The notes beneath the pieces were generated by a model. The model made no database searches, was not told the DNA's origin, and was given only the letters and a program-made list of their open reading frames with translations. Source: Campylobacterales bacterium (GTDB taxonomy: Bacteria > Campylobacterota > Campylobacteria > Campylobacterales > QNZT01). Taken from it: DNA of 64,000 nucleotides. The translations under genes were made by a program, and so were the position numbers. The number at the start of each line of letters is the position of its first letter. The stretch's first letter is position 1. The DNA lies in the NCBI GenBank assembly GCA_027023305.1, contig JALVVR010000041.1, positions 11,029 through 75,028 of the forward strand. Direction: 5' to 3'. Below, one piece after another: positions 1,093 through 58,622 of this stretch.

Positions 1093-1140
1093 AGTAGAAC
1101 TCCTCACATATAAGAAGCTCTATTTTATCAAATATTTTAT

Positions 1141-1563: not shown

Positions 1564-2796
1564 TTATTTTTCAGTAAAAGCATGCTTAGAAACTTCGATA
1601 AATGGCTGAAGCAGGTACTCCATGATTGTTCTTTTTCCAGTTAGGATGTTGATATTTGCTATCATTCCAGGGACTATCAGTTTATCTGGTGCAAACTCAT
1701 AGTGGTCTGCTTTTACCCTTACAAGATAGTACATGGAGTTGTTTTTTTCGGTAAAACTATCCGGGCTTACTGAGATGACTTTTCCTTTTATCATGCCATA
1801 TTTTGAGTAGTTGTATGCTGTTATTGCTATAGATACAGGTTGATTTACCCATACTTTTGCTATATCTTTTGTCTTTATCTTTGCTTCTATGATAAGTGAG
1901 TCATCTATCGGAGTTATCTCAGCTAATCTATCACCAGCTTTTATGATACCACCCATCGTATGAAAGTAGAGTTTTTTTACTATACCATCAACAGGAGAGA
2001 CTACTACTTTTCTTTTTTCTCTATCCTCATCCGCTTCACTTTTTTGTTCTAACTTTTGGATTTTTAAGTTTACTTCGCTTAACTCTTTTAGCCATTTTGA
2101 CTTTGCTTCACTTTTACTTTTATATATATTTGTACTCGCTTCTACTATCTTTTGTTTTGTGATACCTATGGAAGATTTAAGCTCTGAAACTTGGGTAAAA
2201 AGATTTTGTTTTTTTGCTAGTTCGCTTAAGTATTGTTGTTTAGAAGCTGCTCCTTTTCTTCTAAGATTACTTATAATTCTTAGATTTTCCTCAGCTATTT
2301 TTAACTCTATTTTTAGATTGGCTAGTTTTTGCTCTGTTTTTCTTTTTTCTAGTCTTGCTTGAAATAGTTTATTTTCTAAAAGTGAGTTTTGTTCAAAGAA
2401 GTGTTTCATCTCATTGTTAAAGATATTTATCTCATCTAAAACTAACTTATGCTTTAAAATCTCTTTAGAAAAAACTAACTCTTTTTTAAATGCTAACTGT
2501 GCTTCAAGTCTTTGCTTAGTGATTTTAAAAGAGAACAAATCTATCTCTTTTACTTTCAAATCTGATTGTGAAAAGGCATTTTTTAGTCTATATATAGGTG
2601 TGCCTTTTTTTACTTTTTCTCCCTCTTTTACATATATCTTATCTATTATCCCACCTTCTAAATGTTGTATAATCTTTGTTTGAGATGAGGGGATAACTTT
2701 TCCACTTCCTCTAACTACTTCATCTATTTTTGCAAAATATGCCCAAGTTAAAAACAAAGTTACTATGAGCATGATAAGATAAACACTCTTTCTCAT
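1564..2796 (-). CDS. type I secretion periplasmic adaptor (HlyD family membrane fusion protein)
   Basis: 410 aa with an N-terminal TM, a long coiled-coil middle, and a barrel/lipoyl-like C-terminus ending GMIANINILTGKRTIMEYLLQPF, as in HlyD/LapC adaptors. Its start overlaps the stop of the ABC gene by 4 nt (ATGA). Confidence 0.9.
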   Translation of the reverse strand: MRKSVYLIMLIVTLFLTWAYFAKIDEVVRGSGKVIPSSQTKIIQHLEGGIIDKIYVKEGEKVKKGTPIYRLKNAFSQSDLKVKEIDLFSFKITKQRLEAQLAFKKELVFSKEILKHKLVLDEINIFNNEMKHFFEQNSLLENKLFQARLEKRKTEQKLANLKIELKIAEENLRIISNLRRKGAASKQQYLSELAKKQNLFTQVSELKSSIGITKQKIVEASTNIYKSKSEAKSKWLKELSEVNLKIQKLEQKSEADEDREKRKVVVSPVDGIVKKLYFHTMGGIIKAGDRLAEITPIDDSLIIEAKIKTKDIAKVWVNQPVSIAITAYNYSKYGMIKGKVISVSPDSFTEKNNSMYYLVRVKADHYEFAPDKLIVPGMIANINILTGKRTIMEYLLQPFIEVSKHAFTEK

Positions 2797-4934
2797 GACT
2801 CTCCTTTAGATAAAAGAAGTTTTAAAACATCCTCTTTTTTCCCATCTGCTACTACTCTTCCGTTATCAACTAAAATAACTCTATCTACAAGCTCAAGTGC
2901 TGCAAATCTATGACTTATTACTAAAAGTGTTTTATCTTTTAAGCTACTGTTTAGATGTGATACTAGCTTTCTTTCCAGCCCTATATCAAGTCCTGTTGTT
3001 GGTTCATCTAGTATAAGAATAGGAGCATCACTTAAAAGTGCTCTTGCTAATCCTACCAAATGCCTTTGTCCAACTGAGAGATTTTCTCCTCTCTCTCCAA
3101 CATCTAGTGAGTGAGAGTCTGAACTTTTTTTCACTAAATCTAAAAGCCCCGTTTGCTCTAAAAGTTTTGTCATCTCTTGTTTTGATATGGAATGAGAAAG
3201 CTCTAAGTTTTCTTTTAAAGAACCACTAAAAAGGTATGGTTCTTGTGGCATTAAAGAGATGTTATTTCTTAACTCTACTGGGTGAAGATGAGATATGTCT
3301 TGGTTATCAAGATATACTTGTCCCTCGCTTGGATGATAGATACCTGTTAAAAGTTTTTGGATAGTTGTTTTTCCAGCTCCTGTTTGTCCTATGATACCTA
3401 CTCTTTCACCTTCATTTATAGTAAAAGAGATATTGTTTATAGACTTTCCTTTTTTGTTTGGATAAGAAAAAGAGACATTTTCAAACTCTATCTTTCCTTT
3501 TGCTTTTCCTACTCCTACCTCTATATGTTTATCCTCTTCTGTTGGAAGATTCCAGTACTTACTTAGAGATTCAAGGGAGTCTTTTATCTGTCTATATTTT
3601 AAAATAGTGTTTGAAAACATCATCACTGGAACCATCGCTCGACCTGAAAGTATGGTTATAGCTATAAGCCCACCAACACTAAGTGTTCCATCATGAATAC
3701 AAAAAATACCTGCTATGATAGTTGACATTGAGATAGCTTGGATTAGGTTTTGAGATATAAAAGTACTAATTCCATTTAAAAAAGCCATGTCTTTTTGTAT
3801 ATCATGATAGTGCTTTAAAACTCTGTTCCATTTATGTAGCTTTTTTGGAAGAGCATTTGCCAACCTTATCGCTTCATCTCCTTGGATTTGCTCTACTAAG
3901 TAACCCTGTCTTGACTGAGTCTCTTCAAAACTTTTTTTGTGAAGTTTTGCAAGGGGATACTGCATAAGAAAGTTGAACAAAAGTGAAAAAGTAGCTCCAA
4001 CAGCTGGGATTATAGCCATAACAGGATTTATCATAAATATTACTGATACAGCCATAAAGAAAAACGGAACATCTAAGATCTGAGGAATTTTGTTTGCAAA
4101 AAAATCTTTTACACTTGATAGTTCTCGAAAGAGATTTACCTTTGTTCCTACCATATATCTATCATACTCTTTATGTACTGTTAGGATTTTTCTAAAAAGT
4201 TCACTCTCTAGTGAGTGAGAGATTTTGGTTGAGATTTTTTCCATCATGTTTACTCTTGCAGTTTTTAAAATAGTATCAAAAACTAAAACCATAATCATAC
4301 CAAAAGTAAGTACATATAGTGAATCAATCGCAAAGTTAGGGACTATTGAGTTATAAACTATCCTCGAATAAAGTGGAAAAGCAAGAGCAAAAAGGTTTAT
4401 AAAAACACTTATAAGTGCTACTTCGCTAAAGGCTTTCCACTCTTTAAAGACTATGTTATAAAACCAACTTTTGTCATTTTTATTTTTGCTTTTTAGTCTT
4501 TTATCTATCACTTTGTTTTTATCAAAGGTGATGATTTTATCAAATCTTTTCAGAGCTTTTAGTGATGCTTTTTGTTTTTTGTTATGGTAGCCATTTTGTA
4601 TCTCAAAAATATCACCATTTCTTGAAAAGATAACTATAGCTTTGTTGTTTGAATCCATTGCTATACAAGGAAAATGATGAAGAGATAACTCTTTAGCAGA
4701 TATATCATGAAGAGAAGTTTTTAAAGATAATCTTTTGCTTGTCTCTTTAATCTCTTCTACATCAAACTTATCAAGCCCTTTTAGAGAAAACTTTTCTAAA
4801 ACAGCTAGCTCTACTTTTCCATAAAAAAACTCTAAGACTACTTGAAAACTTTCCAAAAGTGGATTTGTTTTTAGTCTTTTTAAGGCATTTGGAGTTTTTT
4901 GTTGCTCTTTAGTTTTTGTCATGATGCTTATCAA
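2793..4934 (-). CDS. type I secretion ABC transporter, ATPase/permease with an N-terminal C39-like (inactive) domain
   Basis: 713 aa. Walker A GQTGAGKTT, signature LSVGQRH, Walker B ILILDEPT, and six predicted TM helices. The ~150-aa N-terminal domain aligns by eye to the C39 fold but lacks the catalytic Cys/His context. That is the HlyB-type CLD typical of RTX exporters. Confidence 0.9.
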   Translation of the reverse strand: MISIMTKTKEQQKTPNALKRLKTNPLLESFQVVLEFFYGKVELAVLEKFSLKGLDKFDVEEIKETSKRLSLKTSLHDISAKELSLHHFPCIAMDSNNKAIVIFSRNGDIFEIQNGYHNKKQKASLKALKRFDKIITFDKNKVIDKRLKSKNKNDKSWFYNIVFKEWKAFSEVALISVFINLFALAFPLYSRIVYNSIVPNFAIDSLYVLTFGMIMVLVFDTILKTARVNMMEKISTKISHSLESELFRKILTVHKEYDRYMVGTKVNLFRELSSVKDFFANKIPQILDVPFFFMAVSVIFMINPVMAIIPAVGATFSLLFNFLMQYPLAKLHKKSFEETQSRQGYLVEQIQGDEAIRLANALPKKLHKWNRVLKHYHDIQKDMAFLNGISTFISQNLIQAISMSTIIAGIFCIHDGTLSVGGLIAITILSGRAMVPVMMFSNTILKYRQIKDSLESLSKYWNLPTEEDKHIEVGVGKAKGKIEFENVSFSYPNKKGKSINNISFTINEGERVGIIGQTGAGKTTIQKLLTGIYHPSEGQVYLDNQDISHLHPVELRNNISLMPQEPYLFSGSLKENLELSHSISKQEMTKLLEQTGLLDLVKKSSDSHSLDVGERGENLSVGQRHLVGLARALLSDAPILILDEPTTGLDIGLERKLVSHLNSSLKDKTLLVISHRFAALELVDRVILVDNGRVVADGKKEDVLKLLLSKGES

Positions 4935-6627
4935 TCCTTACTTTATAATTAAAACTTAGTTTGTCTATAATAGAGTCAAAAACATTGTCCCATTTTTGAA
5001 AACTCTTTTGACGAAAGAGTTTCATGTTAGGGTATAGATAAGATAAACTATCTTTATATCTATATCTCCAATCTGGCATCTTTTGCAAAGGTACCCAAGT
5101 CTCTTTTCCTAAAGCTCCACTTAGATGAGCTACTGATGTATCACTACTGATAACTAAATCTAACTCATTTATCAAAGATGCAGTTTTTGAGAAGTCACTT
5201 AACTTAGAAGTCTTATCTATGACTTTATCTTCAAAACCAAGCTCTTTTATCTGTTTTGAGTCCTCTCCAACTTGTAGAGAATATAAAACAAACTTGTCAT
5301 TAAGTATTATCGGCTTAAAATAGTTTAAGTTAAATACTTTTCCATCATAACTTTCTCCAGTATTACTAGCACCCCAACAAATCCCTATATAAACTTTGTC
5401 TTTTTCTTTTTTTATCTTAAACTCTTCATCCTCTTTTGCAAAGAGATATGGCTTTGTTTTGTATGGTATATCTTCTAGGGTAGCTACTTCATATAGATAA
5501 GGCAGAGATAACATAGAGATTTGATAGTCAAACTCTGGGGTTTTCTCACTCTCTCTAGCATAAAAACTATCTACATTTTTTAGTGAGTTTTCAAAAAGAG
5601 TTTTTAACTCATCTCTGCATTGAAGTATTACTTGTGAGCCAAACCTATCCTTGAAGCTTTCTACAAATCTGGCAAACTGGATACTATCTCCAAAACCTTG
5701 CTCAACATGAATAAGAATTTTTTTATCCTTTAAATCCATCTCTTTTGTAACTTTAGGAGCAGAAAATATATCTTTATATCTAAGTATATGCCCTTTCATC
5801 TCATCTTTTTTAAATCTCCACTCATACTCTTTAAAGCCATTTTTAAAATCACTTATCATCAAATATGTAGTAGCCAAGTCAAAGTGAGCATTTACAAAGT
5901 TCGGATTGAGTTCTATCGCTTTTTTATAACTATCAATAGCATTTTTAAACTTTGCTAAGTGTTTTTGAGAGTTTGCTAAGTTTGCATGAGAGTTTGAGCC
6001 ATTAGGGTCTAGTTCTAACGATTTTTTGTGAAGTTTCTCTGCTTCTTTGTATCTGTAAAGGTTGTTATAGACATTTCCAAGATTTGTATATGCCCCTGCA
6101 GATTTTGGAGATTTTTTTATGGAGATTTTGTGATATTTTTCAGCTTTGTCATAATCTTTTAGTTTTGAATAACATGAGCCTATGTTTGAATTTATCTCAT
6201 GATAGTCTGGTTTTAGTTTTAAAACTTCTTTAAAAACCTCTATCGCCTCTTCATATCTTTTTAGTTTATAAAAGATTCCACCTAGATTGTTATAAGCACT
6301 CACATAGTTTTTATCTCTTTTTATGGTATCTTTATAGGCTAAGATAGCTTCATTTAGTCTTCCAATCCTCTCATAGGTTATACCTACATGATAAAAGATA
6401 GTTGCATTGGATCTATCTTGCTCAAAAGCTTTTTTATAGATGATAAAAGCATCTTTATATCTTTTTAGATTTCTTAGGGTATTTGCAAGAGCTAGTTTAT
6501 ACTCTAAGTTTTTATAGTTCAAAAAGAGATGAGAAAAGTATTTTATCGCCTTTTCATACTCTCTTTTGTTATAATAAAAAGCCCCTTTTTTAAAGAGTTC
6601 TTCTTCGATATTTACTACTTTTGACAA
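4909..6627 (-). CDS. TPR-repeat protein fused to a glycosyltransferase family 9 (heptosyltransferase)-like domain
   Basis: 572 aa. The N-terminal ~260 aa carry about 7 TPR units (AxxxY..A...P.. periodicity). The C-terminal half carries ILIHVEQGFGDSIQFARF ... VISSDTSVAHLSGALGKETWVPL ... DWRY, the GxGDxIQ / DT(S/G)xxHLA hallmarks of GT9-like enzymes. It has a TTG start preceded by GGAGGAG. Its 3' end overlaps the ABC gene by 26 nt. Confidence 0.7.
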   Translation of the reverse strand: MSKVVNIEEELFKKGAFYYNKREYEKAIKYFSHLFLNYKNLEYKLALANTLRNLKRYKDAFIIYKKAFEQDRSNATIFYHVGITYERIGRLNEAILAYKDTIKRDKNYVSAYNNLGGIFYKLKRYEEAIEVFKEVLKLKPDYHEINSNIGSCYSKLKDYDKAEKYHKISIKKSPKSAGAYTNLGNVYNNLYRYKEAEKLHKKSLELDPNGSNSHANLANSQKHLAKFKNAIDSYKKAIELNPNFVNAHFDLATTYLMISDFKNGFKEYEWRFKKDEMKGHILRYKDIFSAPKVTKEMDLKDKKILIHVEQGFGDSIQFARFVESFKDRFGSQVILQCRDELKTLFENSLKNVDSFYARESEKTPEFDYQISMLSLPYLYEVATLEDIPYKTKPYLFAKEDEEFKIKKEKDKVYIGICWGASNTGESYDGKVFNLNYFKPIILNDKFVLYSLQVGEDSKQIKELGFEDKVIDKTSKLSDFSKTASLINELDLVISSDTSVAHLSGALGKETWVPLQKMPDWRYRYKDSLSYLYPNMKLFRQKSFQKWDNVFDSIIDKLSFNYKVRIDKHHDKN

Positions 6628-6670
6628 AATCTCCTCCTAGAGTTTTTTGTAAAGGTAGCAAATATTGTTC

Positions 6671-9600
6671 CTATAATCCTGCTACATGAAGAGTTACATC
6701 TACATCATTTGTACTATCATGAAGTGTATAATCTCCATTTGTAATGGCTGTTGTACCGTTATCATCACCACCGTATTTTACATTGTTCTTATCAGTAAAC
6801 TCTAACTTACTAGCATCATCACTATCTAAGTTTATAGTTAAATCATTATTGCTATCAGTCAAATCATGAATCCACTCACCATCTATTGTGTACTCAGCTT
6901 TACTTCCTCCATTGCTTGTATCATCTCCTACATTTAGAGTTAAGTTTGTAAAATCTAAAGTTTCAATATTATTTAGATTTGAGTTAAATCCAAAAGCTGT
7001 ATCTGATGTTATATCTGTACCTGTATTTCCATTTATATTTACACTATCACTATCTGCTCCTCCATCAAGAGAGATATTTGCTAGATTACTAAAATCCACT
7101 ACAAATGTATCATTTCCTCCATCACCATTAACGACATCAGAACCAGTTCCAGCATCTAGTAAATCATCTCCTGCTCCTCCATAAAGCTTATCATCTCCTG
7201 CTCCTCCATAAAGCTTATCATCTCCTGCTCCTCCATAAAGCTTATCATTTGCATTGTCACCATAGATAGTATCTTTTCCTGCATATCCATAGATAGTGTC
7301 ATTATCTCCATCACCATGGATTTCATCATCTCCACCATCTCGTCCATAGATCTTATCATCTCCTGCATATCCTCGTACATAGTATAAATCATGTCCCATA
7401 GTGATAGTATCCCCAGTAGAGTCATTGCTTCCTTCATACTTTTCTATATCTCTAACATAATCAGTCGCAGTTCCACCAACCTTTATCTCTACATAGTCAC
7501 TATCACTCTTTTGGGTTTTATCCATATCTGTATATACAGTTTTGGTATGACTTTCATCACTAAAGTCAACCTCTACATAGCTATCATAGTAGTTGTTAGC
7601 TGTATCTATACCATCTCCTCCATCTACTATATCACTACCATACCACAACCCTATGTTATCATCACCAGAGCCTGCATTTATGATATTTGTTCCACCAGAT
7701 GCATACATAGTATCATTTCCACCACCAGATATGATGATGTTATCTTCTGAACCTAGGTAGATGTTACTTGCATCACTATTTGAGTCATCTCCATCATAAA
7801 AGTTTTCTACTCCATAGACACTATTTGCATCTCCAACTTTATGAGAGTGATAGGTGTCCACATTTACATCTGCACTACTTATATCCATCCAGTCACTTCC
7901 ATCTCCACCATATATACTATCATCTCCACCACTATATATGATGGTATCATCTCCACCTTGCATATAGACTACATCTGTTCCTGATAAACCTTTGTATGTA
8001 TCTGCATTATCAGTTGCATTTAAATGTTCAAACCCATCTATGGTTTCATTAGATGAATCAAAACCATCAAAAAGTATTTTATTGTTAGATAGGTCTACAT
8101 TTATACCACTTGATGCATTTTTAAAGTCTATTACATCCCAGTCACTTCCACCATGAAGTTCATCTTTTCCTGCATTTGCTACCAATGAGTCATTTCCATA
8201 TCCTAGATCAACATAGTCATCTCCACTTCCATCATCAACTATATCATTTCCACCTTCGGCATAAATGTGGTCATTTCCACTTCCACCTTTTACATTATCT
8301 TGTCCAGCTCCTGCATAAACTATATCATCTCCAGCTCCAGCTTCTATGATGTCATCTCCATCATTTGTTGAAATGTAGTTTATATCGCTATCTACTTTTA
8401 TAGTGTCATTATAATCTGAACCTCTTATAGACTCAAACCCTAAAATATAGTCTTTGTTACCATTTCCATCATCCTCTACCTCATAAAAATCTGCTGTTGT
8501 GCTAACACCTACATCTGTATAGTAGGTTTTTGATACTTTGGTTGCATTTGCAGTATCAAGTTTTAAACCGTGATCCATCCACCAGTAGTAGTCTAGGATG
8601 TCACTTCCACTACCACCATAGAGTATATCACTACCATCTCCACCATTTACTGAGTCATTTCCATCTCCTAAGTTTATAACATCATCTCCACCTTTTGCAT
8701 ACCATGTATCATTTCCACCATTTGCAACAACTGTATTGTTGTTATCATCTAGGTATCCCTCATTTTCATCATCATCATCTATGATATTTTCTACATTGTA
8801 GCTTTTGGTTTGTCCGATACTATGGTTATTTAACTTTATATCTCCATCACTTTTATTGGATATATCAGCCCAGTCGCTTCCACTTCCACCATCAACATAG
8901 TCAGTTCCATCACTCATGATAAAAAGGTCATCCCCACCATTTCCATAAAAGCTCTCATCACTGTCTGAACCTTTTATAGTGTCATTATGTGAGCTTCCAT
9001 AGATATCTTCGATATTTAAAACATCACTCATCTTTGATGTATCACTTTGTTTATCGATAGAAAGGTTGTTTGAAGTTAGAGATAGATCAATATAGCTATC
9101 TTTTGTAACTCTACTAAGATCTAAAAAGTCCTCATCATCTCCACCATTGTATACAGTTTTGTTATCTTTGTTATCACTTACAAAGAGTCTGTCACTTCCT
9201 GTATTTCCATACAGGGTATCACTATATCCATCCTCACTTGTGTTAGCTTCTGCACCACCATATAGGTAGTCATTTCCACCACCTCCATAGATGGTGTCTA
9301 CTCCTTTTCCACCATAGATAGTATCTCCTCCTGTCTCTCCATGAAGTTTATCATCTCCATCATCTCCATAGATAGTATCGCCTTTTAAACCACCATAAAT
9401 ATAGTCATCTCCACCATCTCCATAGATTGTATCTATACCATCTTTACCTAGGATTGAGTTTGAGAGAGAGTTTCCTGTGATGGTATCATTGTTATCAGTA
9501 GCCCAGATATGTTCAAATCCTTTTGCAGTTAAATCTGTATCATCAAAACCATTCTCTTTTATAAGATTGTTGTTTAACTCTACTACTATATTTTTACTTC

Positions 9601-12600
9601 CTGTATTAACATTTTTATAGCTTAGCCAGTCATTGTTTCCACTTCCTGCATCAAGATAATCTTTTCCATCACTACCAAAGATAGTATCATCTCCATCTCC
9701 TGAAAGGATAGTGTTTATAGAGCTATTTCCTGTTATGGTATCTTTAGCATTGCTTCCAACTATATCTTCTATCTCAACAAAAGTTGAGCTTCCAACTCCA
9801 CTTCCACTAGCAGTAGAGTCTCCACTGTCTTTCATGATAACCTCTACTCCAGCATCAGAAGATGTTAAAGATAATCCTGAAAAATCATAAGTATCCTCAT
9901 CACTTCCACCCTCTATTCTATCACTTCCATCACTAGCTAAAAATGTATCATTTCCACTATTTCCTTTTAGTGTATCTTTTATATCACTTGCCAAGTTACC
10001 TTTTATGACATCTATGTTTGATGAACCATTTACGATATTAAAGTCATAAACTTCAGAGCTGTTAGAGTTTCCATCTATGGTTAGGGTATTGGATGATAGG
10101 TCGATGATAGATTTGCTACCTATTCTGCTTAGGTCGATAGTATCTCCATCCTCTCTATCGCCGTTGCTACTTCCATCTCCACCATCATAAACATTTACTA
10201 CATCTCCATCATTTGCATATACAGTATCTATACCTGCTCCACCCCATAGAGTATCTTTTAGAGTATCTGATGATGAGTCATCACTTCTTTTTCCATAGAT
10301 AAAATCATTTCCATCTCCACCTTTTATAAAATCCTCTCCATCTCCACCATATAGGGTATCACTCCCCTCTTCTCCACTTATTAGATCATTTCCACTATCT
10401 CCATAGATTTTGTCATCTCCAAGACCTCCTCTAAGATCATCACTTCCTTCATTTCCGTGGATTAGGTCATTTCCATTTTCTCCAAAGATTGTATTTGCTG
10501 AGCTGTTTCCTGTTAGGGTATCATCATTTTTAGTTGCAACAAGGTTTTCAAAACCTTTTGCTACCTCATCAGTAGATCCAAATCCATCACTTACAATCTT
10601 CTCAGAAGATAGATCAACCACTATCTTATTGTCTCCAACATCTATATCTTTATAGCTTAGATAGTCATTGATTCCATCACCAGCATCAAAGTAATCACTT
10701 CCATCTCCACCAAAGATAGTATCATCTCCACTTCCACCAAGCAGAGTATCATCACCACCTTTACCATCTATAACATCAACTCCATCAAGACCACTTATAG
10801 AGTTGTTTTGAGAGTTACCTGTCAAACTATCATTTACTGTTGTTCCTATGATATGTTCAATCCCATCAAAGCTTATATTTCCTGCATCTCCACTAGCGGT
10901 ACCTGCACCCATATCAACGATAACTCCAGAGTTATCACTATCAGCATCACTAACTTCAGCAAATGTTAGTGTATCTCCCAAAGTACTATCTCCACCATGG
11001 ATAACATCTCCACCTATTGTAGCTTTGATAAGGTCATCTCCAGCTCCTCCAAAGATAGTATCTTGAGACTCACTACCTTTTATGGTATCATTTTCTTCTG
11101 TTGCTTTTATGACATTGAAGCCATCTATGGTGTTACTAAAGGTTGAGTTAGCATCATCATTTTTAACCTCAATCGCACTATTTTCACTCAAGTCTATATT
11201 CATATGATATGAACTATCCATCTGTGAAAAGTCGATAGTATCTCCACTATCTCCACCACCTTTTAGAGTATCAACTCCCAAGTGATCCAAGATAATATCA
11301 ACTCCAGCTCCACCATCAAGATAATCCTCTCCAGCACCACCACTTAAGTAGTCATTTCCAGCACCACCAAAGAAACTATCTTCATGAGATATGGTTGTAT
11401 CGGTTCCTTTATATCCTTTTAGAGTATCTGCTAAGTTTGTTCCTTTTACAACCTCTATGCCATTTAACTCATCAGCTTGAGTTGTTGTTGCTTCATATTT
11501 ACTCTCATTATTGTTCCACTCTACTGTTACTGCTGTTCCAGAATCCTTGTAAGATACTGTATCTTTTCCACTATCTCCACTAGCTTCTCCACCATAGACT
11601 GTGTTTTTACCATTGTCACTTAGGATAAATGTATCGTTACCATCTCCACCATATAGGTAGTCCTCATTTGTTCCTGAACTTATGATGTCATCCCCATCTC
11701 TACCATAGATGATGTTTTTACCAGCAGTACCTTTTACTATATCTACCCCATCAAAACCTTTATAGTTTTCGATAGATGTCATGGTGTCATGCTCTAAGTT
11801 TGAGTTATCAGCTTTTTTGATATATGTATCTCCATTTAGGTCTGCTTCTATATGATCGGCATCGCTATATGCACTATCTACATATCCATAATCAACACTA
11901 TCACTACCAGCTCCTCCATCTAAGATGTCATCTCCCTTTCCTCCAAAGAGAGTATCATCATCACTCTCTCCATAAAGGGTGTCTTTTCCATCATCTCCAA
12001 CTAAAACATCATTGTCTGCTCCACCTTTTAGGATATTGTCTTCACTATTACCTTTTATGTAGTCTTTTAAATCACTTCCTATTACATTTTCTATACCAAC
12101 TAAAGTATCATTTCCAGCTTGTGCATGAACTCTTTGAGAGCCTGAAACAGTCAAATCAACTTCAATTCCATCATAAGCATCACTTGAATCTTTATCTGCA
12201 CCACTTCCATCTGCATCTCTATCATCTTCACTATCAGCTACAAAATCTTTTATCTGTGAGTAGTCAACTGTATCATTTCCAACTCCTCCATCAAGATAGT
12301 CATCTCCAATTCCTGCTATGATAGTATCGTTATCCCCTTCACCATAAATCTTATCATTTCCATCTTGCTCTGTTATAGTATCATTCCCAGCTCCAGCTTT
12401 TATGGTGTTGTTTGCCTTATCTCCACTTGCTTGATCTCCACTGTCAGTTATGACATCTCCAGCTTTTCCACCTATGACATTTTCGATAGAGTCTAGGATG
12501 TCATTTCCTTGAGTTGAAGATGATGCAAACTTTCCTTGTAGATTTATAGTAACTGAGTCTGTTACACCTGCATATGATACCCAGTCTCCACCTTCGCCAC

Positions 12601-15600
12601 TACTATAAGTTTCACTTCCACCTTTTATCTTATCATCTCCAGCTCCACCACTTATAATGTCGTTTGCATCTCCACCATCTATGGTGTCATCTCCATCTCC
12701 ACCACTTATGGTATCCTCTCCAGCTTCTCCATAGATAGTGTCATTTCCAGCTCCACCAAGTAGGCTCTCTAGTGAGTCATTTGCTCCACCATAGATAAGG
12801 TCATCTCCTTTTTTTCCATCTATGCTGTCTACTCCATCCATACCTTTTAGAGTGTTTGAGCTTGCATTTCCTGTTATATTGTCATTTCCAGCAGTTGCTG
12901 TTACATTTTCTATATTTTTTATCTTATCATCATCCCCATTATGAAGATCTGCAGTTATAAATCCATCAGCATCTGGAGAGTCTCCTAAGTTTATGGTTAA
13001 GTAGTTAGAGCTATCAGTGATAGCACTATAATCAACTGTATCATTTCCATCTCCACCATCTATCTTATCTACTCCATCATCAGATGCACTAGCTTTTATA
13101 AGGTCCTCTCCATCTTGTCCATAGATAAGGTCAGCTCCACTTCCACCTGTTATCTCATCATCTCCAACACCAGCATAGATAGTATCTGCTCCACCTTTTG
13201 CATCTAACTTATCATCTCCAGCATATCCATAGAAGATATTTTTATCATCATTTCCTGTTATCTCATCACTTCCACCATCACTTCCTAAGATGTTGTTGAT
13301 ATATGAGATAGTATCAGCTTCATCATTTGCACCATTCCACTCATTTCCATCAGTATCATCAGCATCCACTTTTACAGTTGAAGTAGAAGTTGCTGTGTTT
13401 AGTGTTACTTGGATTTTGTTTTCACTTCTATAATCAGCATAATTGTTTGTATCAGTTCCACTACCACCGATAAGAGTATCAGCTCCTTTTAATCCTTCTA
13501 ATGTATCAATTCCTGCTCCACCTTCTAATATATTTGTAGTATCACTTCCGATTATAGTATCATCGCCACTACTTCCAAGAGCATTTTCTATATCTCTTAA
13601 CTCATCACTATCTCCAGCTACTACTGCACCACTACCATCAACAACTTTTCCCTCTTTGCTTTTTAGATTTATCACTGCATGATTTGCATTATTAGTTACA
13701 TAGCTATAAGATACTGTATCATTTAAACTATCATCAACACCATTTTCATCTCCACCAAAGATTTTATCAGCTCCTATACCACCACTTAGGGTATCATCTC
13801 CACTATCTCCGATGATAGTATCATTTCCATCTCCTCCATCTATACTGTCATCTCCACTATCTCCACTTAAAGTATCTACTCCATCTTCTCCATAAATAGT
13901 ATCTGCTTCATCTCCTCCATTTATGATATTTGTATCAATATTTCCTGTTAGGGTATCTTTAGCAGTTCCACCTATGATATTTTCTATATGTGTTATTGTA
14001 TCTTCATTATTTCCATCTATTTTTGCAGTTGCACTTGCATCAGCATTTGCTAAATCAAGTTCAACAGTTTTTGTTACAGCTGAGTAATCAACTGTATCAC
14101 TTCCACTTGTTCCATCAACTTCATTTCCACCATCTATAGTGTCAGTTCCATCACCCTCTTTAACTATAAAGGTATCATTTCCATAACCACCACTTAAAGT
14201 ATCATCTCCATCTCTTCCATCTATAGTATCATTTCCACCAGCTCCGTAGATAGAGTTAGCTCCACTACTTCCTTTTAAGATGTCATTTCCTATATTTGAT
14301 CCTATTATATTTTCTATATTTGTTAAGTGGTCATATCCATGATGAGTTGAAGCTGCATTATAATCTCCATTTCCATCTTGATCTGTAAGTCCACCATTTA
14401 AATCAACTTGAACATCAGTTAGAGAGCTTAAAAATGATGCAGTATCAACTCCATCTCCACCATCTATTTCATCATTTCCAGCTCCACCTTCAAGGATGTC
14501 ATTTCCACTTCCTCCATCAAGTGTATCTGCACCATCTCCACCTTTAATGTTGTCTTGACCACCTTCTCCATAGATAGTATCATCTCCAAATCCACCCTCT
14601 AGTATCTCTATATCATTTAAATCACTGTTATCGGTATTGTCTCCACCGTAGATGATATCTTTTCCTGTTCCACCAAAGATAGTATCACTTCCACCATCTC
14701 CTCTTAAGCTATCATCTCCTGCATCTCCAGCTAAGTAATCTTTTCCATCTCCTCCATATAGGGTGTCATTTCCCTCTCCTGCACTTATAGTATCATCTCC
14801 ACTATTTGCTTGGATAAAGTTTGAGGTAGCTGATCCTACTATACTATCATCACTTTGAGTTAGGATGAGGTTTTCTATGTTTTTAACTGAGTCAGTTTTG
14901 TTATCACTACTATCAGTAAAATCTCCATCACTATCATAGTCTAGTACCAAATCACTAGCAGTTCCACCCTTTAACTCTCCTCTTATACCACCTTTTGTGC
15001 TATTAGAAGAGTCTCCAAAAGAGCTATAATCGATAGTATCAACATCAGCTCCACCATCTATGTTGTCTGCTAAGTTATCTAAGTTTGATTTATCTTGTTT
15101 AAAAAGGTCTCCACCCTCATCTCCTTCAAGAGTATCACTTCCTTTTCCACCCTCTATGACATCAGCTCCTGCTCCACCTCTTAGGGTATTTGAGTCATCA
15201 CTTCCTTTTATCTCATCTGCATAATCACTTCCTATGATGTTTGATATACCATAGAGAGTATCTTTTTCATCACTGTCATCCCAACCATTGTTATCGTTAT
15301 CAACTATGACACTGTTTGGATCGTCTAATAGATCTACTTTGATTTTATTTTGACCTGTATATCCTGCAAAGTCTCCATCTCCAGCTTGACCAGTCTCTTT
15401 TGTTGCTATAAGAATATCATTTCCTAGTCCACCATAGAGTGTATCTTGACCTGCTCCACCCATGATAGTGTTTGCTATATCATTTCCTGTTAGCTTATCA
15501 TTTCCACTACCACCTAGGATATTTTCAACTCCACTTATAACATCTCCTTGTGCATCTCCTGCACTGTTAGTTCCTGTTTTTAAGTTTACTATAACTCCTG

Positions 15601-18600
15601 TGGTATCACTATCATAACTAACTAAGTCAACTCCAGCTCCACCAACTATCTTGTCAGCTCCGCTTCCTCCCTCTAGGGTGTCATCTCCGCTTCCTCCCTC
15701 TAGGGTGTCATCTCCAGCTTTTCCTTTTAGGGTATCTGCTTCATCTCCTCCAGCAAGGATATTTACTAAGCTATTTCCTGTGATAATATCTTTGTTGCTA
15801 GTTCCTGTGATATTTTCTATATCATATAGTTTGTCATCATAACTATTTGAACCATCTTTTATAGATGAGGTTGTAACTCCACTATTAGCTAACTCTACCT
15901 CTACATGACCTGAAGTTAAAAGATGATAATCAACCATATCACTACCACCATCTCCATAAAGAGTATCGGTAGTACTCTCTAAATCTTTTATCAAGAATGT
16001 ATCATCTCCCTCTGCACCCTTTAGAGTGTTTGATAAGCTATCTCCTGTGATAGTATCATTTAGGTTTGAGCCAACTACATTTTCTATATTTTTTAACTTA
16101 TCACTTCCTGTATCTGAACTACTTGCAGTTCCGTAATCATCATTATCTCTATCTTTTAAATCTACCACAACTTTTGATAGTGATGATGAGAAGTTAACCT
16201 CATCTATGTCATCTCCACCATCAAGGGTGTCATCTCCTCTATCAGCATATAGGGTATCACTTCCAGCATCTGCATAAAGCAAATCATCCCCATCATCCCC
16301 TTTTAAGCTATCATCTCCACTTCCACCGTGAAGTTCATCATTATCTGCTCCTCCATAGAGAGTATCATTATCATCTCCTCCATAGAGTTTATCATCATCA
16401 TTTCCACCCTTTAAGATGTCAACTCCACTCTCTCCATATATCTCATCTTTTCCACTAGCACCATCTAGGATGTCATTTCCAGCTCCACCTTTTAGGGTGT
16501 TGTTAGCTGTATCTCCTGTGATTGTGTCATCTCCACTTCCACCTATGACATTTTCTACATTTTTTACATCTCCACTATCACTGCCTGCTACTTTGATAGT
16601 TGCTGAGTTTACAGTGTTTAGTGTAAGCTCTACTTTATCGCTGTTTGTAGAACCATCAGCTTTTAGTGAAAAGTCTATCGTATCTACTCCAGCTTCTCCA
16701 TCAAAAAGATTGTTTTCTCCAGATGAGTAGTGGATAAGGTCAGATCCCTCTCCAGCTTTTATAGTGTTATCAACTCCATCAGTGGAGAAGAAAATATCAT
16801 CATGAGATGTTCCTATAACATTTTCGATAGATGAAAGGGTATCATTTACATGATTTCCATCTCCATTTATATTTTTCCCACTTCCTGATGATAGATTTAC
16901 TATCATAGCTTCATCTATATTTTCATAGCTTACTGTATCACTACCACTACCACTTCCATCTAAACTATCTCCATAGATATAGTTTGTCCCTGTTTTTGCC
17001 TCTATGGTATCATTTCCACCATTTCCAACAAGAGTATTGTTTGTAGAATCTTTTCCTATAATGGTATCTGTTTGATTAGAACCTGCGATTAGCTCTATAT
17101 TTCTTAAAGTATCAGTGTATGCTCCATAGGTAGCTGTCTCTTTTGTTAAGTCTATAACTATGTTGTTTTCACTATTTGCACTATAATCAGCCCAATCTTT
17201 ATCTCCATCTCCACCATCTAGGTAGTCATTTCCTCCTCTAGCAAATAGTCTGTCATCTCCACTTCCACCTTTTATCGTGTTATCGCTATCATCTCCTTTT
17301 ATGATGTCATTTCCTGCTGTTCCTACTACATTTTCTATATTTTTTAGTTTATCTGTTGTATTACTTCCATCGTTATCATGAACTGTTACATCTGCATATC
17401 CATCTGTTAAAGAGGTTAAATCTACACTTATAGAGTCATCTGCCTCTGTTAGCTTATCACTATAATCTATTGTATCACTTCCATCATTTCCATCAAACTT
17501 GTTGTTAGATGTAATATCTGTGTAAAACTTATCATCATGAGATGAACCTTTTACATTTTCGATATTTATTAAGGTATCATCTCCCTGTTCACTGTTTATA
17601 TGTTGAGAAGTGGTTCTTCCTAAATCAACTGTAACTGGTGCAGAAGATAGTGAATAATCAACGATATCCTCTCCATCTCCACCATCAAAGTAGTCATTTC
17701 CAGCTCCACCTTTGATGATGTCATCTCCACTTCCACCCTCTAAGTGGTCATTTCCTTCTGCTCCATCTAATATATCACTTCCAGCTCCACCTTTTAAAGT
17801 GTTGATAGCAGTATCTCCTACTATGTTATCATCTCCACTACCACCGATAAAGTTTTCTATGTTTACTATCTTATCATTGTCATATCCATTTATCACTACA
17901 TCTGTTTGAGCTGTTGTGTTTAGAGTTACATCTATATTTTTTGAGATAACTGAGTAGTTGATAGTATCATTTGTACCATCTTCTCCATCTACAAAGTCAA
18001 CTCCATCATTTGTATCAACTAAAGTATCACTGCTATCATCATATCCTCCCATGTAGAAGGTATCATTTCCAGCTCCACCTAGAAGAGAGTTGTTGTTTTC
18101 ATCTCCAAAAAGGGAGTCATCTCCACTTCCAGTTGTTAGGTTTTCTATATTTGTTATGGTATCTTCATCTCCACTTTTTATCGTTTGAGCTGAGCTTTTT
18201 CCGAGTTTTATAGTCAAATCATCACTATAATTTGAGTAATCAATAGTATCGCTTCCATCCTTTCCATCAAAGGAGTTTGCTATGTTACCTGTTGCTGTTT
18301 TAAAGTAGTCATCTCCACTACTTCCTATAAAGTTTTCGATACTGTTTATAGTGTCACTATCAGTTGAGTCTACAACTACTTTGCTGTTTGCTATATCTAC
18401 ACTTACTGAACCATTTGTAACATACTCATAACTTGATGTATCACTTCCAGCTCCACCTTGAAGATTATCATCACCACCATTTCCAACAAGTAGGTCATCT
18501 CCATCTCCAGCTTGGATGGTATTGTCTTTATTGTCAGCTTTTATTTGGTCTTTTCCACTACTTCCTATGACATTTTCTATATCTTTTATATAATCTTTTG

Positions 18601-21600
18601 GTTTAGATTCTCCACCTTTAGTTACACTAACCTCTGTATAGCCTTTACCATCAGTTTGACTTAAATCTAGTGATATAACATCATTGCTATCTGTCATATC
18701 ACTATAATCGATAGTATCTCCACCGCTTGACTCTTCTCCTTTTGCATCAATCTTGTTTGATTGTTCATGATTTGTTGTAAAGGTATCATTGTATGAAGAG
18801 CCTATCGCATTTTCGATAGATTTTAGAGTATCACTTCCTTGACCTCCACCAACATTTTGCTCTTCTTCAGTTCCTAAAGAGACTCTTATACCACTACTTG
18901 CATCACTATAATCAACAGTATCAGTTCCACTTCCACCATCTATTAGGTCGTTATTACTACCACCTTTTAGGATGTCATCTCCCTTTTGTCCATATAGTGA
19001 GTTGTTTCCTATACCACCATCTAGGAAATCATCTCCACCACCTCCATAGATAGTGTCATTTCCACTCTCTCCATAGATAGTGTCATTATTTGAAAGTGTT
19101 CCACTCTCATCTGTTAGCTTTTCATCTCCATAGATTCTATCATGATCACTTCCACCGTGGATTATATCTTCTCCATCTCCACCGATAAGAGTATCATTTC
19201 CAGCTTTTCCATCTATGTTATCATCTCCGCTGTTTCCATCTAGTATGTTTACATTGTCATCTCCAGCGATACTATCACTTACAGTTGAGCCTGTTATATT
19301 TTCAATATTTGAGACTGTATCATTTTGTAAGTCAGCAACTGTTACAGTAGCCTCTCCACTTCCATTTAGAGTAACGGTAATAGCCTTATCTATACCACTA
19401 TAATCAACTGTATCACTTCCTAAGTTTCCGTTGAAGTTGTTTGCTACTGATGTATTAGTTATAAATGTATCATCTCCATCTCCACCTATAGCTTTTTCTA
19501 TCGAAGTAAAGCTATCTCCTTCACTACTAGAGTTTTTTGAAAAGTCTACCTTTACACTACTGTTATAGTAGCTATAATCAACTGTATCCTCTCCACTACT
19601 TCCACCATCTATGGCTTTATTTCCACCATATATTTTGAAAATATCATCATTTTTTGTTCCAACTATCTTTTCTATTGAGCTAAAGGTATCACTATCGCTA
19701 CCATTTCCTATCTGTGCAGTAAGATTTTTAAAATCTGCTGTTAATATATCACTGTTTGTTACATAGTTATATACAAGTGTATCAGTACCATCTTTACCAT
19801 CAAAAGAGTTTGCATTTGCATCTCCTTTAAAAATATCATTACCATCACTTCCTAATATATTTTCTATTTTTAAAAGAGTATCTTCAGCTTCTTTTGAACC
19901 ATTTTTAAAAATATCTGATTTTTCATCAGTTAAATCTACATTTACATAATCTTTTGTTACATCATTAACATTTATTTTTTCATAACTAACAGTATCTCCC
20001 TTTCCACCATTTTGAGTTTCATTTGACTCATCTGCACCACCATCAAAAATATTGTTTTGATTTTCAGCTGATTTAAAAGTATCTGAGTAGCTACCACCTA
20101 TATATTTTTCTATAGATTCAAACTTATCACTATCTGCTCCTCCACCTACATTTTGATAATCAGTTTCTGCTGCATCTATTGATATACCTGCTGTAGAAGT
20201 TGAGAAATCTACAGTATCTACTCCATCTCCTCCTTTATAGAAATCATTTCCTGCTGTACTTATAAACTCATCATCTCCAGCTTGTCCATCTAGCATATTG
20301 TCTGCTTTATTTCCTTTTATATAGTCATTTCCAGCAGTTGCTACTACATTTTCAATATGTGAGATTGTATCTTCGTCACTACCATCTACTTTTATAGTTG
20401 AAGTATTATCATCATCTGCTAAAGTTATACTTATATTATGAGTGTTATCTAAATCACTATAATCAACTGTATCACTTCCATCTCCTCCATCAACTATATC
20501 ATTTCCATCTCCTATATGAGCGATAAAAATATCATCTCCTGCTTCACCATATAAGTTATCAGTTTCATTTTTACCATCTATAACATCTTTACCTGCTCCA
20601 CCTTTTATGGTATTTACAACATCACTTGCAGTAATAGTATCATCTCCAGCACTTCCGATAACATTTTCTACTCCACTTATGAAATCTTTATCATTTGTTT
20701 CTACAGCACTTCCATCATAGATAACTGCATTGTGTCCATCTATATTTGTTCCAGTTAAATCTACTACTGCCTTATAGCTTCCATCTGTTATATAATCATA
20801 ACTAATAGTATCTACACTTGTATCACTACCATCAGTAGATCCCCCATAAATAAGATCTTCTCCATCATTTCCTACCAAATAATCTTGTCCTTTATATCCA
20901 TAAAGAGTATCATTACTATTTGATCCTTTTAGAGTATCATCATATTTACTTCCTATGATTCCCTCTATATTTGAAAGTCTATCACTTGAACCATCTCCAT
21001 CATTATCTACTTGAAAACCATTTCCATCACTATCATTTAAATCGGCATTTATTTTGTTTGATGCTAAAGTATAGTTAGCTAAATCGCTTCCCTCTCCACC
21101 ATCAAGGGTATCACTACCTTTGTTTCCTATAAGTGTATCATCTCCTTTATCTCCATAAATAGTATCATCATCATCTCCACCATATAGTATATCAACTCCA
21201 TCATCTCCATGAATAGTATCTTTTCCAGCTTCTCCTTTTATGATATCATCTCCAGCATTTCCTGATAATTCATTTGCCCCAGAGTCTCCTGTTATATCAT
21301 CATTTACTGTACTACCTTTAATATTTTCTATATTTTTTATCACATCATTTTGGGAGTCTGCTACTGTAACTGTGGCATCATTTGATCCATCAAGAGTTAC
21401 AGTTATACTATTAGTTATATGAGAGTAATCTGCTGTATCTGTTCCTGTGTTTCCATCAAATCTGTTTTCAACACCTGTATCTGTTTTAAAAATATCATTT
21501 CCACTTCCACCTATTGCATTTTCTATATTTGCAAACTTATCACTTTCACTACTTGTATTTGTAGCAAAATTGACCTCCACTCCTGTAGTGTATTTACTAT

Positions 21601-31221: not shown

Positions 31222-32847
31222 ATGGATAAATTTTTATATTCAGCAGTTGCACTCAGTGCTATATTTGCTATATCTTTACATGCTAGTAATAGTATAAGCT
31301 TAGGAGAGTTTAAAAGTTATAGTATCGCAAAAAAAATAGTAAAAAAATATCCCAATAGCCAAATTATCATGATTGAAAATAGCCATGGAGTACCTATTTA
31401 TAAAGTTTTAATAAATCCTGAGAATAAAACAATAAAAAAACAAAAAAATATAGTTTCAAAAAAAAGAATTTTTAAGATAAAAGAAACTCCAAAAGAAGAA
31501 GTTATAGATATAAATAAAAAGATAAAGCCTATTGTAAAAAAGGTTGTAAAAGATAAAAAAGTAAATATTCATGATAGTCATAGTGGCATAACTTTACATG
31601 AAGCTATACTTATAGCTTTAAAAAAATCAAATAAAATAATGGCAGCAAGAGAAAAAGTAGTACAAGCAAAAAGAGTTTTAGATGAAAAATATGGTGCTTT
31701 TAAGCCGAAAGTTGACTTTATGGCAAATAGCAATAGAATAAGAGTTAAACCAAAAGATGAAGAAAGAACTGTATATAGTAAAAATGATTATACTCTATCA
31801 CTTAAACAAAATATTTATGCTGGTGGGAAAAATATAGGTGAGTTAAAAAGAGAAAAAGCTAACCTTAAAGTTGCTGAGTCAAAGTTTAAACAAAAAGTAG
31901 AAGAGGAAACAACAAAGATTATAGATGCATACTATGCACTTATATACCAAACTAAAAGTATAAATATTACTAAAAAGAATATGAAGCTTTTAGAAAAAAT
32001 ACTAAATATAGTAAAAATCAAAGAGCAAAATGGTGCAGCTACAAAGGGTGATTTAAACTATATAAAATCCCAAATTGAAAATGCCTCAAGTGAACTTATA
32101 AAACAAAAATCTCTGTATCAAAATTCACTTTCAATGTATGAGTATTTTGTAGGCAAAGATAGTTCTTTACTACCTATTGAGGAGAAAATAGAGTATAAGA
32201 AATTTGATAAAAAAAATCTTTTAAATATCTTAAATAATAACAACTCTAAAATAGAAGTAGCTAAAGCAAAAATTGAAACTGAAAAATATAATTTATCTTC
32301 ATTAAAGTCAAAATTTAAACCTACAGTTGACTTTACTATCAGAGATAGAGGAAAGTTTACAAACTCTGATGTAGAACCATCTGAAAAAAGGACAACTGGG
32401 ATTTTAACACTAAATTATAATATATATAATGGTGATAAAGACAAATCTAAAATACTTGGTTCAAAAAGTAAAATCTTAGAGTTAAAATACAAGCTTGTTG
32501 ATTTGGAAGATAGCATGAAGTTTAACTTAAAACAAATATATGAAACTACAATATCTAGTCAAGATAGTATGCTTCATACAAAAAAAGAGGTTGATGCAAA
32601 CAAAAAAGTGATAGATTCTTACTGGAATGCTTTTAAGTATGGTTCTCAAGATATACAAGCTCTAATGCTTGCACAAAGAGCATTAAATCGTTCGGAATTA
32701 GACTTAATAAAAGAGAAACAAAAATATACTTCTAACTACTTCAATCTTTTAAAAGTTAGTGGGATATTACTTGATGAATTACATATCAATGACTTCATAG
32801 ACTCATCAAAGATGACTCAAGATGAGTCTATAAACTATTTATATTAG
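31222..32847 (+). CDS. TolC-family outer membrane factor with a ~110-aa N-terminal extension
   Basis: 541 aa. Signal peptide MDKFLYSAVALSAIFAISLHA. From about residue 120 the sequence is TolC-like: ITLHEAILIALKKSNKIMAAREKV...YGAFKPKVDF, a second repeat at KFKPTVDF, and coiled-coil heptads. The gene is divergent from the T1SS substrate gene. Confidence 0.85.
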   Translation: MDKFLYSAVALSAIFAISLHASNSISLGEFKSYSIAKKIVKKYPNSQIIMIENSHGVPIYKVLINPENKTIKKQKNIVSKKRIFKIKETPKEEVIDINKKIKPIVKKVVKDKKVNIHDSHSGITLHEAILIALKKSNKIMAAREKVVQAKRVLDEKYGAFKPKVDFMANSNRIRVKPKDEERTVYSKNDYTLSLKQNIYAGGKNIGELKREKANLKVAESKFKQKVEEETTKIIDAYYALIYQTKSINITKKNMKLLEKILNIVKIKEQNGAATKGDLNYIKSQIENASSELIKQKSLYQNSLSMYEYFVGKDSSLLPIEEKIEYKKFDKKNLLNILNNNNSKIEVAKAKIETEKYNLSSLKSKFKPTVDFTIRDRGKFTNSDVEPSEKRTTGILTLNYNIYNGDKDKSKILGSKSKILELKYKLVDLEDSMKFNLKQIYETTISSQDSMLHTKKEVDANKKVIDSYWNAFKYGSQDIQALMLAQRALNRSELDLIKEKQKYTSNYFNLLKVSGILLDELHINDFIDSSKMTQDESINYLY

Positions 32848-34764: not shown

Positions 34765-34773
34765 TTTTTACCT

Positions 34774-58613: not shown

Positions 58614-58622
58614 CTTCTCTCC

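Follow-up and report, generated by a model that had tools for sequence, protein, structure and literature searches.

Introduction

To our knowledge, HlyC-type acylation is the only well-understood pre-export modification in repeats-in-toxin (RTX) proteins, the classic cargo of type I secretion systems (T1SSs). Here we describe a gene that may encode a glycosyltransferase for such a protein. The gene lies in a 64-kb stretch of DNA from a Campylobacterales bacterium (contig JALVVR010000041.1), called the window throughout. Its product joins tetratricopeptide repeats (TPRs) to a glycosyltransferase-like GT-B domain. The closest described system is FlmG of Caulobacter. FlmG is necessary as well as sufficient for cytoplasmic O-glycosylation of flagellin with pseudaminic acid. 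Briefly, the TPR domain of FlmG binds flagellin and the GT-B domain determines the donor (PMC7591256; bioRxiv 10.1101/2022.03.25.485807). The distribution of FlmG has been stated as confined to Caulobacterales (Viollier group; bioRxiv 10.1101/2023.12.03.569772). Among RTX proteins, the cyanobacterial SwmA and oscillin appear to be glycosylated; an RTX review names no enzyme (PMC3034196).

We propose, with a probability of about 0.6, that the window protein is an FlmG-like cytoplasmic protein O-glycosyltransferase whose target has changed from flagellin to a T1SS substrate, and that it adds sugar before export. Cytoplasmic glycosylation of secretion substrates is known. The new element suggested by the sequences is an FlmG-type enzyme re-targeted to type I secretion. 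A first-pass annotation of the window had already proposed glycosylation of a T1SS substrate in the cytoplasm. As a genomic inference, this proposal is now supported by fold, gene context and homology to FlmG.

A putative glycosyltransferase gene inside an RTX secretion operon

The genes concerned are listed below.

4909..6627, minus strand: TPR plus GT-B (GT9-like) putative protein O-glycosyltransferase, FlmG-like, 572 aa (open reading frame and translation)
6625..6638, minus strand: ribosome-binding site of the glycosyltransferase gene, AGGAGG (6638-6633), 5-nt spacer and TTG start (6627-6625)
6671..31036, minus strand: giant RTX protein of 8121 aa, presumed to be exported by the T1SS and to serve as acceptor for the glycosyltransferase (RTX motifs, Pfam)
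2793..4934, minus strand: T1SS ATP-binding cassette (ABC) exporter, LssB/HlyB type (TIGR03375, ABC_membrane, ABC_tran)
1564..2796, minus strand: T1SS membrane-fusion protein (MFP), HlyD family (TIGR01843)
31222..32847, plus strand: TolC-like outer-membrane factor, divergent from the giant gene (PF02321 OEP, E 1.9e-41)

All parts of a type I secretion (RTX) operon were found: an ABC exporter, a HlyD-family MFP, a TolC-like outer-membrane factor and a substrate with RTX repeats. On the minus strand the order is giant RTX gene, glycosyltransferase gene, ABC exporter and MFP. The first-pass annotation correctly placed the 572-aa reading frame between the substrate and exporter genes but omitted its strand. 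Only 43 nt separate the giant RTX gene from the glycosyltransferase gene, which in turn overlaps the ABC gene. The overlap was first given as 26 nt. This holds for the listed TTG start of the ABC gene; an in-frame ATG at 4922, probably the more plausible start, reduces the overlap to 14 nt. The genes overlap in either case. The MFP gene overlaps the ABC gene by 4 nt. The glycosyltransferase gene has a strong Shine-Dalgarno sequence at its own TTG start. Together with the overlap, this indicates co-expression with the exporter.

The MFP scores 352.9 bits with TIGR01843, above the cut-off of 208.65. The exporter has a weak C39-like N-terminus and scores 654.8 bits with TIGR03375, just under the cut-off of 693. 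The TolC-like protein is homologous to the product of an OEP(+SPOR) gene at related T1SS loci. The 572-aa translation of the glycosyltransferase shows neither a signal peptide nor a hydrophobic N-terminus. Hence, the protein is probably cytoplasmic. As first annotated, no HlyC-type acyltransferase is encoded among the scanned open reading frames of the window. The accompanying remark, that the glycosyltransferase gene takes the position equivalent to hlyC, is loose since hlyC lies upstream of hlyA in classical operons.

Predicted fold of the glycosyltransferase

The regions of the protein discussed below are as follows.

5845..6609, minus strand: TPR domain, aa ~7-261, seven full repeats and an eighth hairpin running into a conserved YEWRF linker
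4912..5844, minus strand: C-terminal GT-B domain (C-domain), aa 262-572, GT9-like (AlphaFold2 model of the C-domain, Foldseek, hhalign to FlmG)
5686..5703, minus strand: EQGFGD motif, aa 309-314, placed where GT9 enzymes have their N-terminal 'GD' loop
5122..5145, minus strand: SDTSVAHL motif, aa 495-502, GT9-type donor-sugar/nucleotide loop

The full-length protein was modelled with AlphaFold2 (AF2) from a 41-sequence alignment (predicted local distance difference test, pLDDT, 93.9; predicted template-modelling score, pTM, 0.88). In the model, 16 helices pair into 8 hairpins. After these come two Rossmann-like halves, one with its strands at 303-371 and the other at 412-539, and finally the C-terminal crossing helix (547-561). 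Both Pfam and the model agree with the earlier count of about seven TPR units, with an eighth hairpin in addition.

A fold search with the whole protein ranks SPY and OGT first, via the common TPR plus GT-B layout. This would fit an OGT-like regulatory role, in which the enzyme controls secretion by modifying either several cytoplasmic proteins or the T1SS machinery itself. However, these matches have template-modelling (TM) scores of only ~0.3 and are driven by the TPRs. They were not used for classification. Hence, the C-domain was predicted alone (pLDDT 89, pTM 0.90) and searched by itself. No chain of family GT41 (OGT, SPY, HMW1C) occurs in the top 50 rows, and Pfam gives no GT41 match. 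We reject GT41 membership on these grounds and consider an OGT-like regulator highly improbable.

GT9 chains fill the first six rows of the C-domain search and 24 of the top 25 (E 7.6e-9 to 3.6e-5). They include 3tov, 1psw, 4rap/4rb4, 6dfe, 2h1f and 2gt1. The lone exception in the top 25 is row 7, a chain of NDH-PSI-LHCI (9grx_1). The best match is the Veillonella GT9 protein 3tov (E 7.6e-9, TMq 0.56); the protein heptosyltransferase TibC (4rap) matches with E 2.9e-7 and TMq 0.57. By predicted fold, the C-domain is clearly a GT9-like GT-B domain.

The domain had first been described as GT9/heptosyltransferase-type. The description stands for fold and motifs, including preference for GT9 over GT41, but not at the thresholds of curated hidden Markov models (HMMs). 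The two motif-bearing segments, EQGFGDSIQFARF at aa 309-321 and DTSVAHLSGALGKETWVPL at aa 496-514, are both present. The HMM alignments cover the same regions: positions 74-145 of TIGR04414 (Aah/TibC) align to aa 293-363 and positions 173-203 of PF01075 align to aa 478-508. Matches to PF01075 are weak in all 19 relatives (best E 5.5e-8). NCBIfam has no model for the C-domain or for FlmG and returns only heptosyltransferase matches below threshold. Among sequences of the PDB, no GT9 chain was found by the C-domain, either as a single sequence or as a 19-sequence profile; the full-length profile was swamped by TPR proteins.

The fold matches could also be taken to mean that the acceptor is not a protein. 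WaaF (1psw) and WaaC, which act on lipopolysaccharide (LPS), are among the top matches, and the sub-threshold HMM matches are to LPS heptosyltransferases I, II and III. The enzyme might then act on LPS core, on a lipid or on a surface glycan by which the RTX protein is received or anchored. However, TibC matches the C-domain equally well, and a protein acceptor is favoured by the fused TPRs and by homology to an enzyme that O-glycosylates protein. In addition, the operon contains no LPS or polysaccharide genes. A non-protein acceptor is, in our view, very unlikely.

Conserved motifs and the TPR domain

The 'GD' catalytic loop and the D-T/S-x-x-x-H donor loop have roles described for WaaC and TibC. 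In the 41-sequence alignment EQGFGD is invariant, as are D496, T497 and H501 of the SDTSVAHL loop. By analogy with the published work on WaaC and TibC, the Asp of EQGFGD may be the catalytic base. Among the T1SS-linked relatives described below, EQGFGD, the GAS..K region and LDLVISSDTSVAHLAGA are 90-100% conserved. That the GT9-type motifs are invariant, or nearly so, in 41 relatives points to selection for catalysis.

Pfam places TPRs over aa ~10-260 (TPR_1, E 2.8e-40), and the profile of this region matches the TPR region of OGT/SPY at E 1e-71. Successive repeats have an Asn at their 'NLG' position (N113, N148, N182 and N216). The region also matches models of class II chaperones of type III secretion systems (T3SSs), with SycD/LcrH at 80 bits, below the cut-off of 104.8. 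Hence, the protein could mainly be a TPR chaperone or secretion adaptor that prevents folding of the 8121-aa substrate and brings it to the ABC transporter, with the GT-like domain as a non-catalytic binding or sugar-sensing module. Gene position and translational coupling with the exporter would fit, and very long unfolded substrates plausibly need a holder. However, the TPR matches are generic, with consensus TPR proteins the best, and the catalytic and donor motifs are retained. Furthermore, the homologue FlmG is catalytically active (PMC7591256). We conclude that a purely chaperone-like protein is unlikely; a chaperone role and catalysis could coexist.

Homology to FlmG

Distant relatives of the window protein are encoded beside flagellin, FlaF and FlbT genes. 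This setting is reminiscent of Caulobacter FlmG, and homology was tested. The FlmG locus was reached by a search with the Caulobacter FljK sequence, after which the C. vibrioides flagellin locus was fetched (L088). At this locus a 596-aa TPR gene (L088 5922-7712) adjoins genes for an acetyltransferase, FlbT, FlaF and three flagellins. We identify it as FlmG from its length and flagellin-locus context. In BLASTP, the window protein and FlmG align with E 2e-30, collinearly over 552 aa. Using hhalign, the C-domain profile aligns to aa 280-596 of FlmG with a probability of 99.5% (E 5e-23). Judged by these alignments, the window glycosyltransferase is a distant but genuine homologue of FlmG over both domains, and not its orthologue. 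FlmG had been cited in the first-pass annotation only as a precedent. Homology over both domains raises the description 'protein-modifying' from analogy to homology.

The two proteins differ at the donor loop. The window protein has SDTSVAHL and PDWRW where FlmG has FSNATINL and SSWT. In both the T1SS-linked relatives and the wider family, the LDLVISSDTSVAHLAGA donor loop and PDWRW are 90-100% conserved; FlmG has VDLVIGFSNATINLAGA and SSWT. The EQGFGD loop is common to all the groups compared, including FlmG. The divergent loop of FlmG may go with its donor, the CMP-nonulosonate CMP-pseudaminic acid. The T1SS-linked proteins more likely use a nucleotide sugar different from the CMP-pseudaminic or CMP-legionaminic acid (CMP-Pse/Leg) of FlmG. 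Retention of the GT9-type DTxxxH loop, lost by FlmG, is a weak argument for a heptose- or hexose-type nucleoside diphosphate (NDP)-sugar over CMP-pseudaminic acid. The donor need not be heptose.

A T1SS-linked clade within a large family

The C-domain belongs to a very large family. An indexed protein search returned >5,000 relatives, nearly all TPR fusions of 440-570 aa. An exhaustive profile search gave 42,247 clusters at 50% identity, 20,739 of them at E <= 1e-30. Many clusters are fusions with 3-6 copies of the domain and reach 3,140 aa (P0121-P0270). For gene context we collected 79 loci from species-representative genomes and 11 further places by exact look-up. A neighbour-joining tree was built from 173 C-domains; its branches have no support values.

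In this tree a single clade unites the window protein with every relative whose C-domain identity is >=42%. At 17 of the 19 distinct clade loci the gene is followed immediately (within 200 nt, often with overlap) by the ABC and MFP genes. A giant Asp/Gly-rich RTX gene is directly upstream at ~14 of the 19 (3,500-8,600 aa where the length is known). Across 81 loci scanned, reading frames with RTX repeats adjoin family members in this clade only. Eight clade members come from named genomes, and all of these belong to the Campylobacterota (Arcobacteraceae, Aliarcobacter, Helicobacter sp. and Campylobacterales). Three T1SS-linked loci of the clade have a GC content of 38-46%. A TGESYxGKVF loop specific to the clade follows strand one of the second Rossmann half. 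Relatives outside the clade (<=39% identity, many phyla) have no adjoining T1SS genes. Their recurrent neighbours are flagellin (10 loci), FlaF (6) and FlbT (6) genes and tandem paralogues. The first-pass annotation had tied its proposal to gene context, and this is how the context falls: close relatives precede T1SS genes and distant paralogues alone lie in flagellin or other loci. These patterns suggest recruitment of an FlmG-type enzyme into a T1SS operon, in a clade whose named members are all Campylobacterota.

The family context also bears on whether flagellin, or another non-RTX protein, is the true target. The enzyme would then work like FlmG, and its place in the T1SS operon would be incidental. 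Consistent with such a role, FlmG is a homologue, and distant family members lie beside flagellin, FlaF and FlbT genes at no fewer than 10 loci. Furthermore, fliN and fliO come after the operon both in the window and in L081, and one clade member stands alone. Tight linkage to ABC and MFP genes at 17 of 19 loci argues otherwise. In addition, no flagellin gene adjoins the window gene or 17 of its 19 close relatives, and most T1SS-linked loci lack flagellar genes (L080, L082-L084, L089-L092). The T1SS-linked proteins also stand apart as a clade with their own loop. Moreover, flagellins of Campylobacterota are glycosylated by Maf-type enzymes. We regard a flagellin target as improbable and favour the RTX protein.

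Insertions were seen between the giant RTX and glycosyltransferase genes of some relatives. Several have a SapC-family gene here (PF07277, E 8.9e-40; L001 7497-8174, L005 8529-9215, L006 8414-9106, L080 9304-9987). The S-layer T1SS operon of C. fetus has SapC as its fourth gene, for which there is no explanation. The window has no SapC gene in its 43-nt gap. In other relatives toxin-antitoxin genes (HicA/HicB; YafQ/HigB-like) occupy this site (L083 6514-7956; L092 5495-6014), and L083 has an FkbM-family methyltransferase gene as well.

The flagellin-side loci of distant family members (L009, L015, L022, L024, L027, L030, L032, L056, L067 and L068) come from Geobacter, Scalindua, Pirellulales, Verrucomicrobiota, Poribacteria and Xanthobacteraceae. 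Their presence outside Caulobacterales suggests that FlmG-like flagellin glycosylation is wider than stated. Tandem arrays of 5-6 paralogues are frequent in the family, both in cyanobacteria (L014, L018, L029, L036, L042, L053, L060, L071, L075, L077) and in the Geobacter group (L009, L027, L067, L068). Cyanobacteria lack flagella. We looked for a link of the oscillin/SwmA type but found no RTX gene within 10 kb of the cyanobacterial and other paralogues.

The giant RTX protein

The presumed acceptor has >130 GGxGxD motifs over its whole length. HemolysinCabind is its only Pfam family (98 stretches). No LapA-type retention module or other named N-terminal domain was found when NCBIfam was compared with the N-terminal 450 aa. 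With no non-RTX domain detected, the protein may be an adhesin, a toxin or an S-layer-like protein. The protein had been called extremely Ser/Thr/Asp rich. This is right for Asp (16.8%) but overstated for Ser and Thr (together 17.2%); Gly makes up 15.3%.

We considered D[YF][ST] as an acceptor site. The motif occurs 50 times, against 13±3.6 in shuffled sequences. However, the enrichment reflects a longer RTX module, GGxGxDT[VIA]D[YF]S, that recurs in the protein. The motif was rejected as a candidate, since a component of the RTX module itself is uninformative on glycosylation.

Proposed mechanism

RTX proteins are unfolded at cytoplasmic calcium levels. Hence, we envisage the giant protein remaining unfolded in the low-calcium cytoplasm. 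The N-terminal TPR superhelix would bind extended RTX stretches, as the TPR domain of FlmG binds flagellin. The unfolded chain would be held by the Asn residues at the NLG position of successive repeats; OGT holds extended peptides with a similar arrangement of TPR Asn residues. The GT9-like GT-B domain would then attach a monosaccharide, donated by a nucleotide sugar, to Ser/Thr side chains. Finally, the ABC/MFP/TolC channel would take over the modified chain, and the RTX protein, whether secreted or kept on the cell surface, would bear the sugars. The tight link between the glycosyltransferase and ABC genes suits an enzyme that acts shortly before the exporter receives the chain, or during that step. 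The narrow flagellar channel lets glycosylated flagellin through, and a T1SS does so for acylated HlyA. Monosaccharide-bearing chains should therefore pass too.

Several observations weigh against this mechanism. Identity to FlmG is only 22%, and this characterised homologue acts on flagellin. The C-domain falls below curated cut-offs: PF01075 scores 18.3 bits with the full protein and 19.8 bits with the C-domain (gathering cut-off 22), and TIGR04414 scores 23.7-24.9 bits (cut-off 200). The grouping of T1SS-linked proteins rests on tree branches that lack support values. Within the clade, L006 has the giant gene and SapC upstream and no ABC gene, L002 has no RTX gene upstream and the member at L086/87 is the one that stands alone. 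In the window, fliN and fliO are 1.5-2 kb downstream. No sugar-nucleotide biosynthesis gene (heptose, Pse/Leg or other NDP-sugars) was found among the open reading frames of the 64-kb window. Lastly, the acceptor was assigned from genomics, by gene neighbourhood alone. We infer the adjacent RTX protein as acceptor, modification before export and O-linkage.

If RTX glycosylation by this enzyme is correct, RTX proteins would have a second kind of cytoplasmic maturation step and the T1SS channel would accept glycosylated chains. The FlmG principle, whereby the TPR picks the acceptor and the GT-B domain picks the sugar, would extend beyond flagellin. There would also be a genetic handle on the solubility, protease resistance or antigenic variability of giant surface proteins. 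In addition, the long-reported and unexplained glycosylation of RTX proteins such as SwmA and oscillin would gain a candidate enzyme family (PMC3034196). Glycosylation of an RTX protein was initially thought unusual. These reports suggest otherwise, and the unusual part is a dedicated, operon-encoded enzyme. We found no paper on a TPR-glycosyltransferase in a T1SS/RTX operon, although the open-access literature searched is weak evidence of absence.

More broadly, a T1SS with a dedicated, operon-encoded glycosylation step would be a third secretion route coupled to a cytoplasmic O-glycosyltransferase, after the flagellar T3SS (FlmG/Maf) and type V secretion systems (T5SSs; TibC/Aah, HMW1C). By extension, the hardly studied family of ~42,000 clusters, with its tandem arrays in cyanobacteria and Geobacter, would be a broad class of cytoplasmic protein glycosyltransferases whose TPR modules are retargeted to different secreted substrates. 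We hold the odds of this wider view to be even.

Neighbouring genes

Other genes belonging to the secretion locus adjoin the TolC-like gene.

32856..35694, minus strand: three accessory genes, 306/423/214 aa (BLASTP to related T1SS loci)

The accessory genes are homologues of three genes that follow the HlyD gene in L003, L004, L005 and L080 (BLASTP E 1e-16 to 1e-78). Three genes of similar size also follow the HlyD gene in L091. On this sequence evidence, we assign the accessory genes to the same secretion locus, since they travel with the T1SS in related genomes. None has a solid Pfam match. Weak similarity links the 423-aa product to MotA/ExbB (E 0.008) and the 214-aa product to OmpA (E 0.018). 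Together they could make a proton-channel pair for this T1SS, somewhat like SiiAB in Salmonella SPI-4.

The window TolC-like protein has 541 aa, with a ~120-aa N-terminal extension and no SPOR match. In relatives, the TolC-like factor is ~895 aa long with a SPOR (peptidoglycan-binding) domain and is followed by a GGDEF-EAL gene (L005 17221-19905, L080 17965-20652). Directly after the T1SS operon, on the same strand, are a rhodanese-domain gene, fliN and fliO (window 524-1527, minus strand). This order is repeated in the 85%-identical relative L081 and not in more distant relatives. Elsewhere in the window, two adjacent genes (226 and 169 aa; 57933-59132, minus strand) have weak CheZ-like matches. 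A 227-aa gene (45812-46495, minus strand) encodes an Mrr_cat restriction-endonuclease domain.

Comparison with known systems

FlmG is the nearest relative. Both proteins have an N-terminal TPR domain plus a C-terminal GT-B domain, with 596 aa in FlmG and 572 aa in the window protein. The motif EQG(F/L)GD is common to both (EQGLGD in FlmG, EQGFGD in the window protein). FlmG is a soluble cytoplasmic enzyme acting on an unfolded secretion substrate before export, as we propose for the window protein. The two differ in locus (flagellin/FlaF/FlbT against T1SS/RTX operon) and in clade. They also differ in acceptor: flagellin, exported by the flagellar T3SS, for FlmG, and presumably the giant RTX protein, exported by the T1SS, for the window protein. 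The DTxxxH donor loop and PDWRW are lost in FlmG but kept in the window protein.

Aah and TibC share the GT9-like GT-B fold. They O-glycosylate Ser residues of a repetitive surface protein, encoded by a neighbouring gene, in the cytoplasm before secretion. However, neither has a TPR domain, and their substrates are T5SS autotransporters rather than a T1SS RTX protein. TibC is an iron-containing dodecamer; nothing in the window protein points to this assembly or to use of ADP-heptose. WaaC and WaaF (CAZy GT9, PF01075) are best structural matches with the 'GD' loop and the D-T/S-x-x-x-H donor loop in common. They differ in having an LPS acceptor and no TPRs.

With HlyC the likeness is one of function: each would be a cytoplasmic enzyme, encoded in the operon, for post-translational modification of an RTX protein ahead of T1SS export. 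The fold and chemistry are unrelated (HlyC catalyses acyl-ACP-dependent Lys acylation) and hlyC is the gene upstream of its substrate gene. The GT41 enzymes HMW1C/NGT and OGT/SPY also combine a helical repeat domain with a GT-B catalytic domain that acts on proteins. Furthermore, HMW1C acts in the cytoplasm on a secreted adhesin, which is exported by two-partner secretion. The window catalytic domain is not GT41-like by fold or by Pfam. By analogy, the window system would work on the same logic as FlmG, TibC/Aah and HMW1C, with a secretion substrate glycosylated in the cytoplasm by an enzyme encoded close to it. Sequence comparison groups the window protein by descent with FlmG in a very large GT9-like family; the protein itself is neither a curated GT9 member nor GT41.

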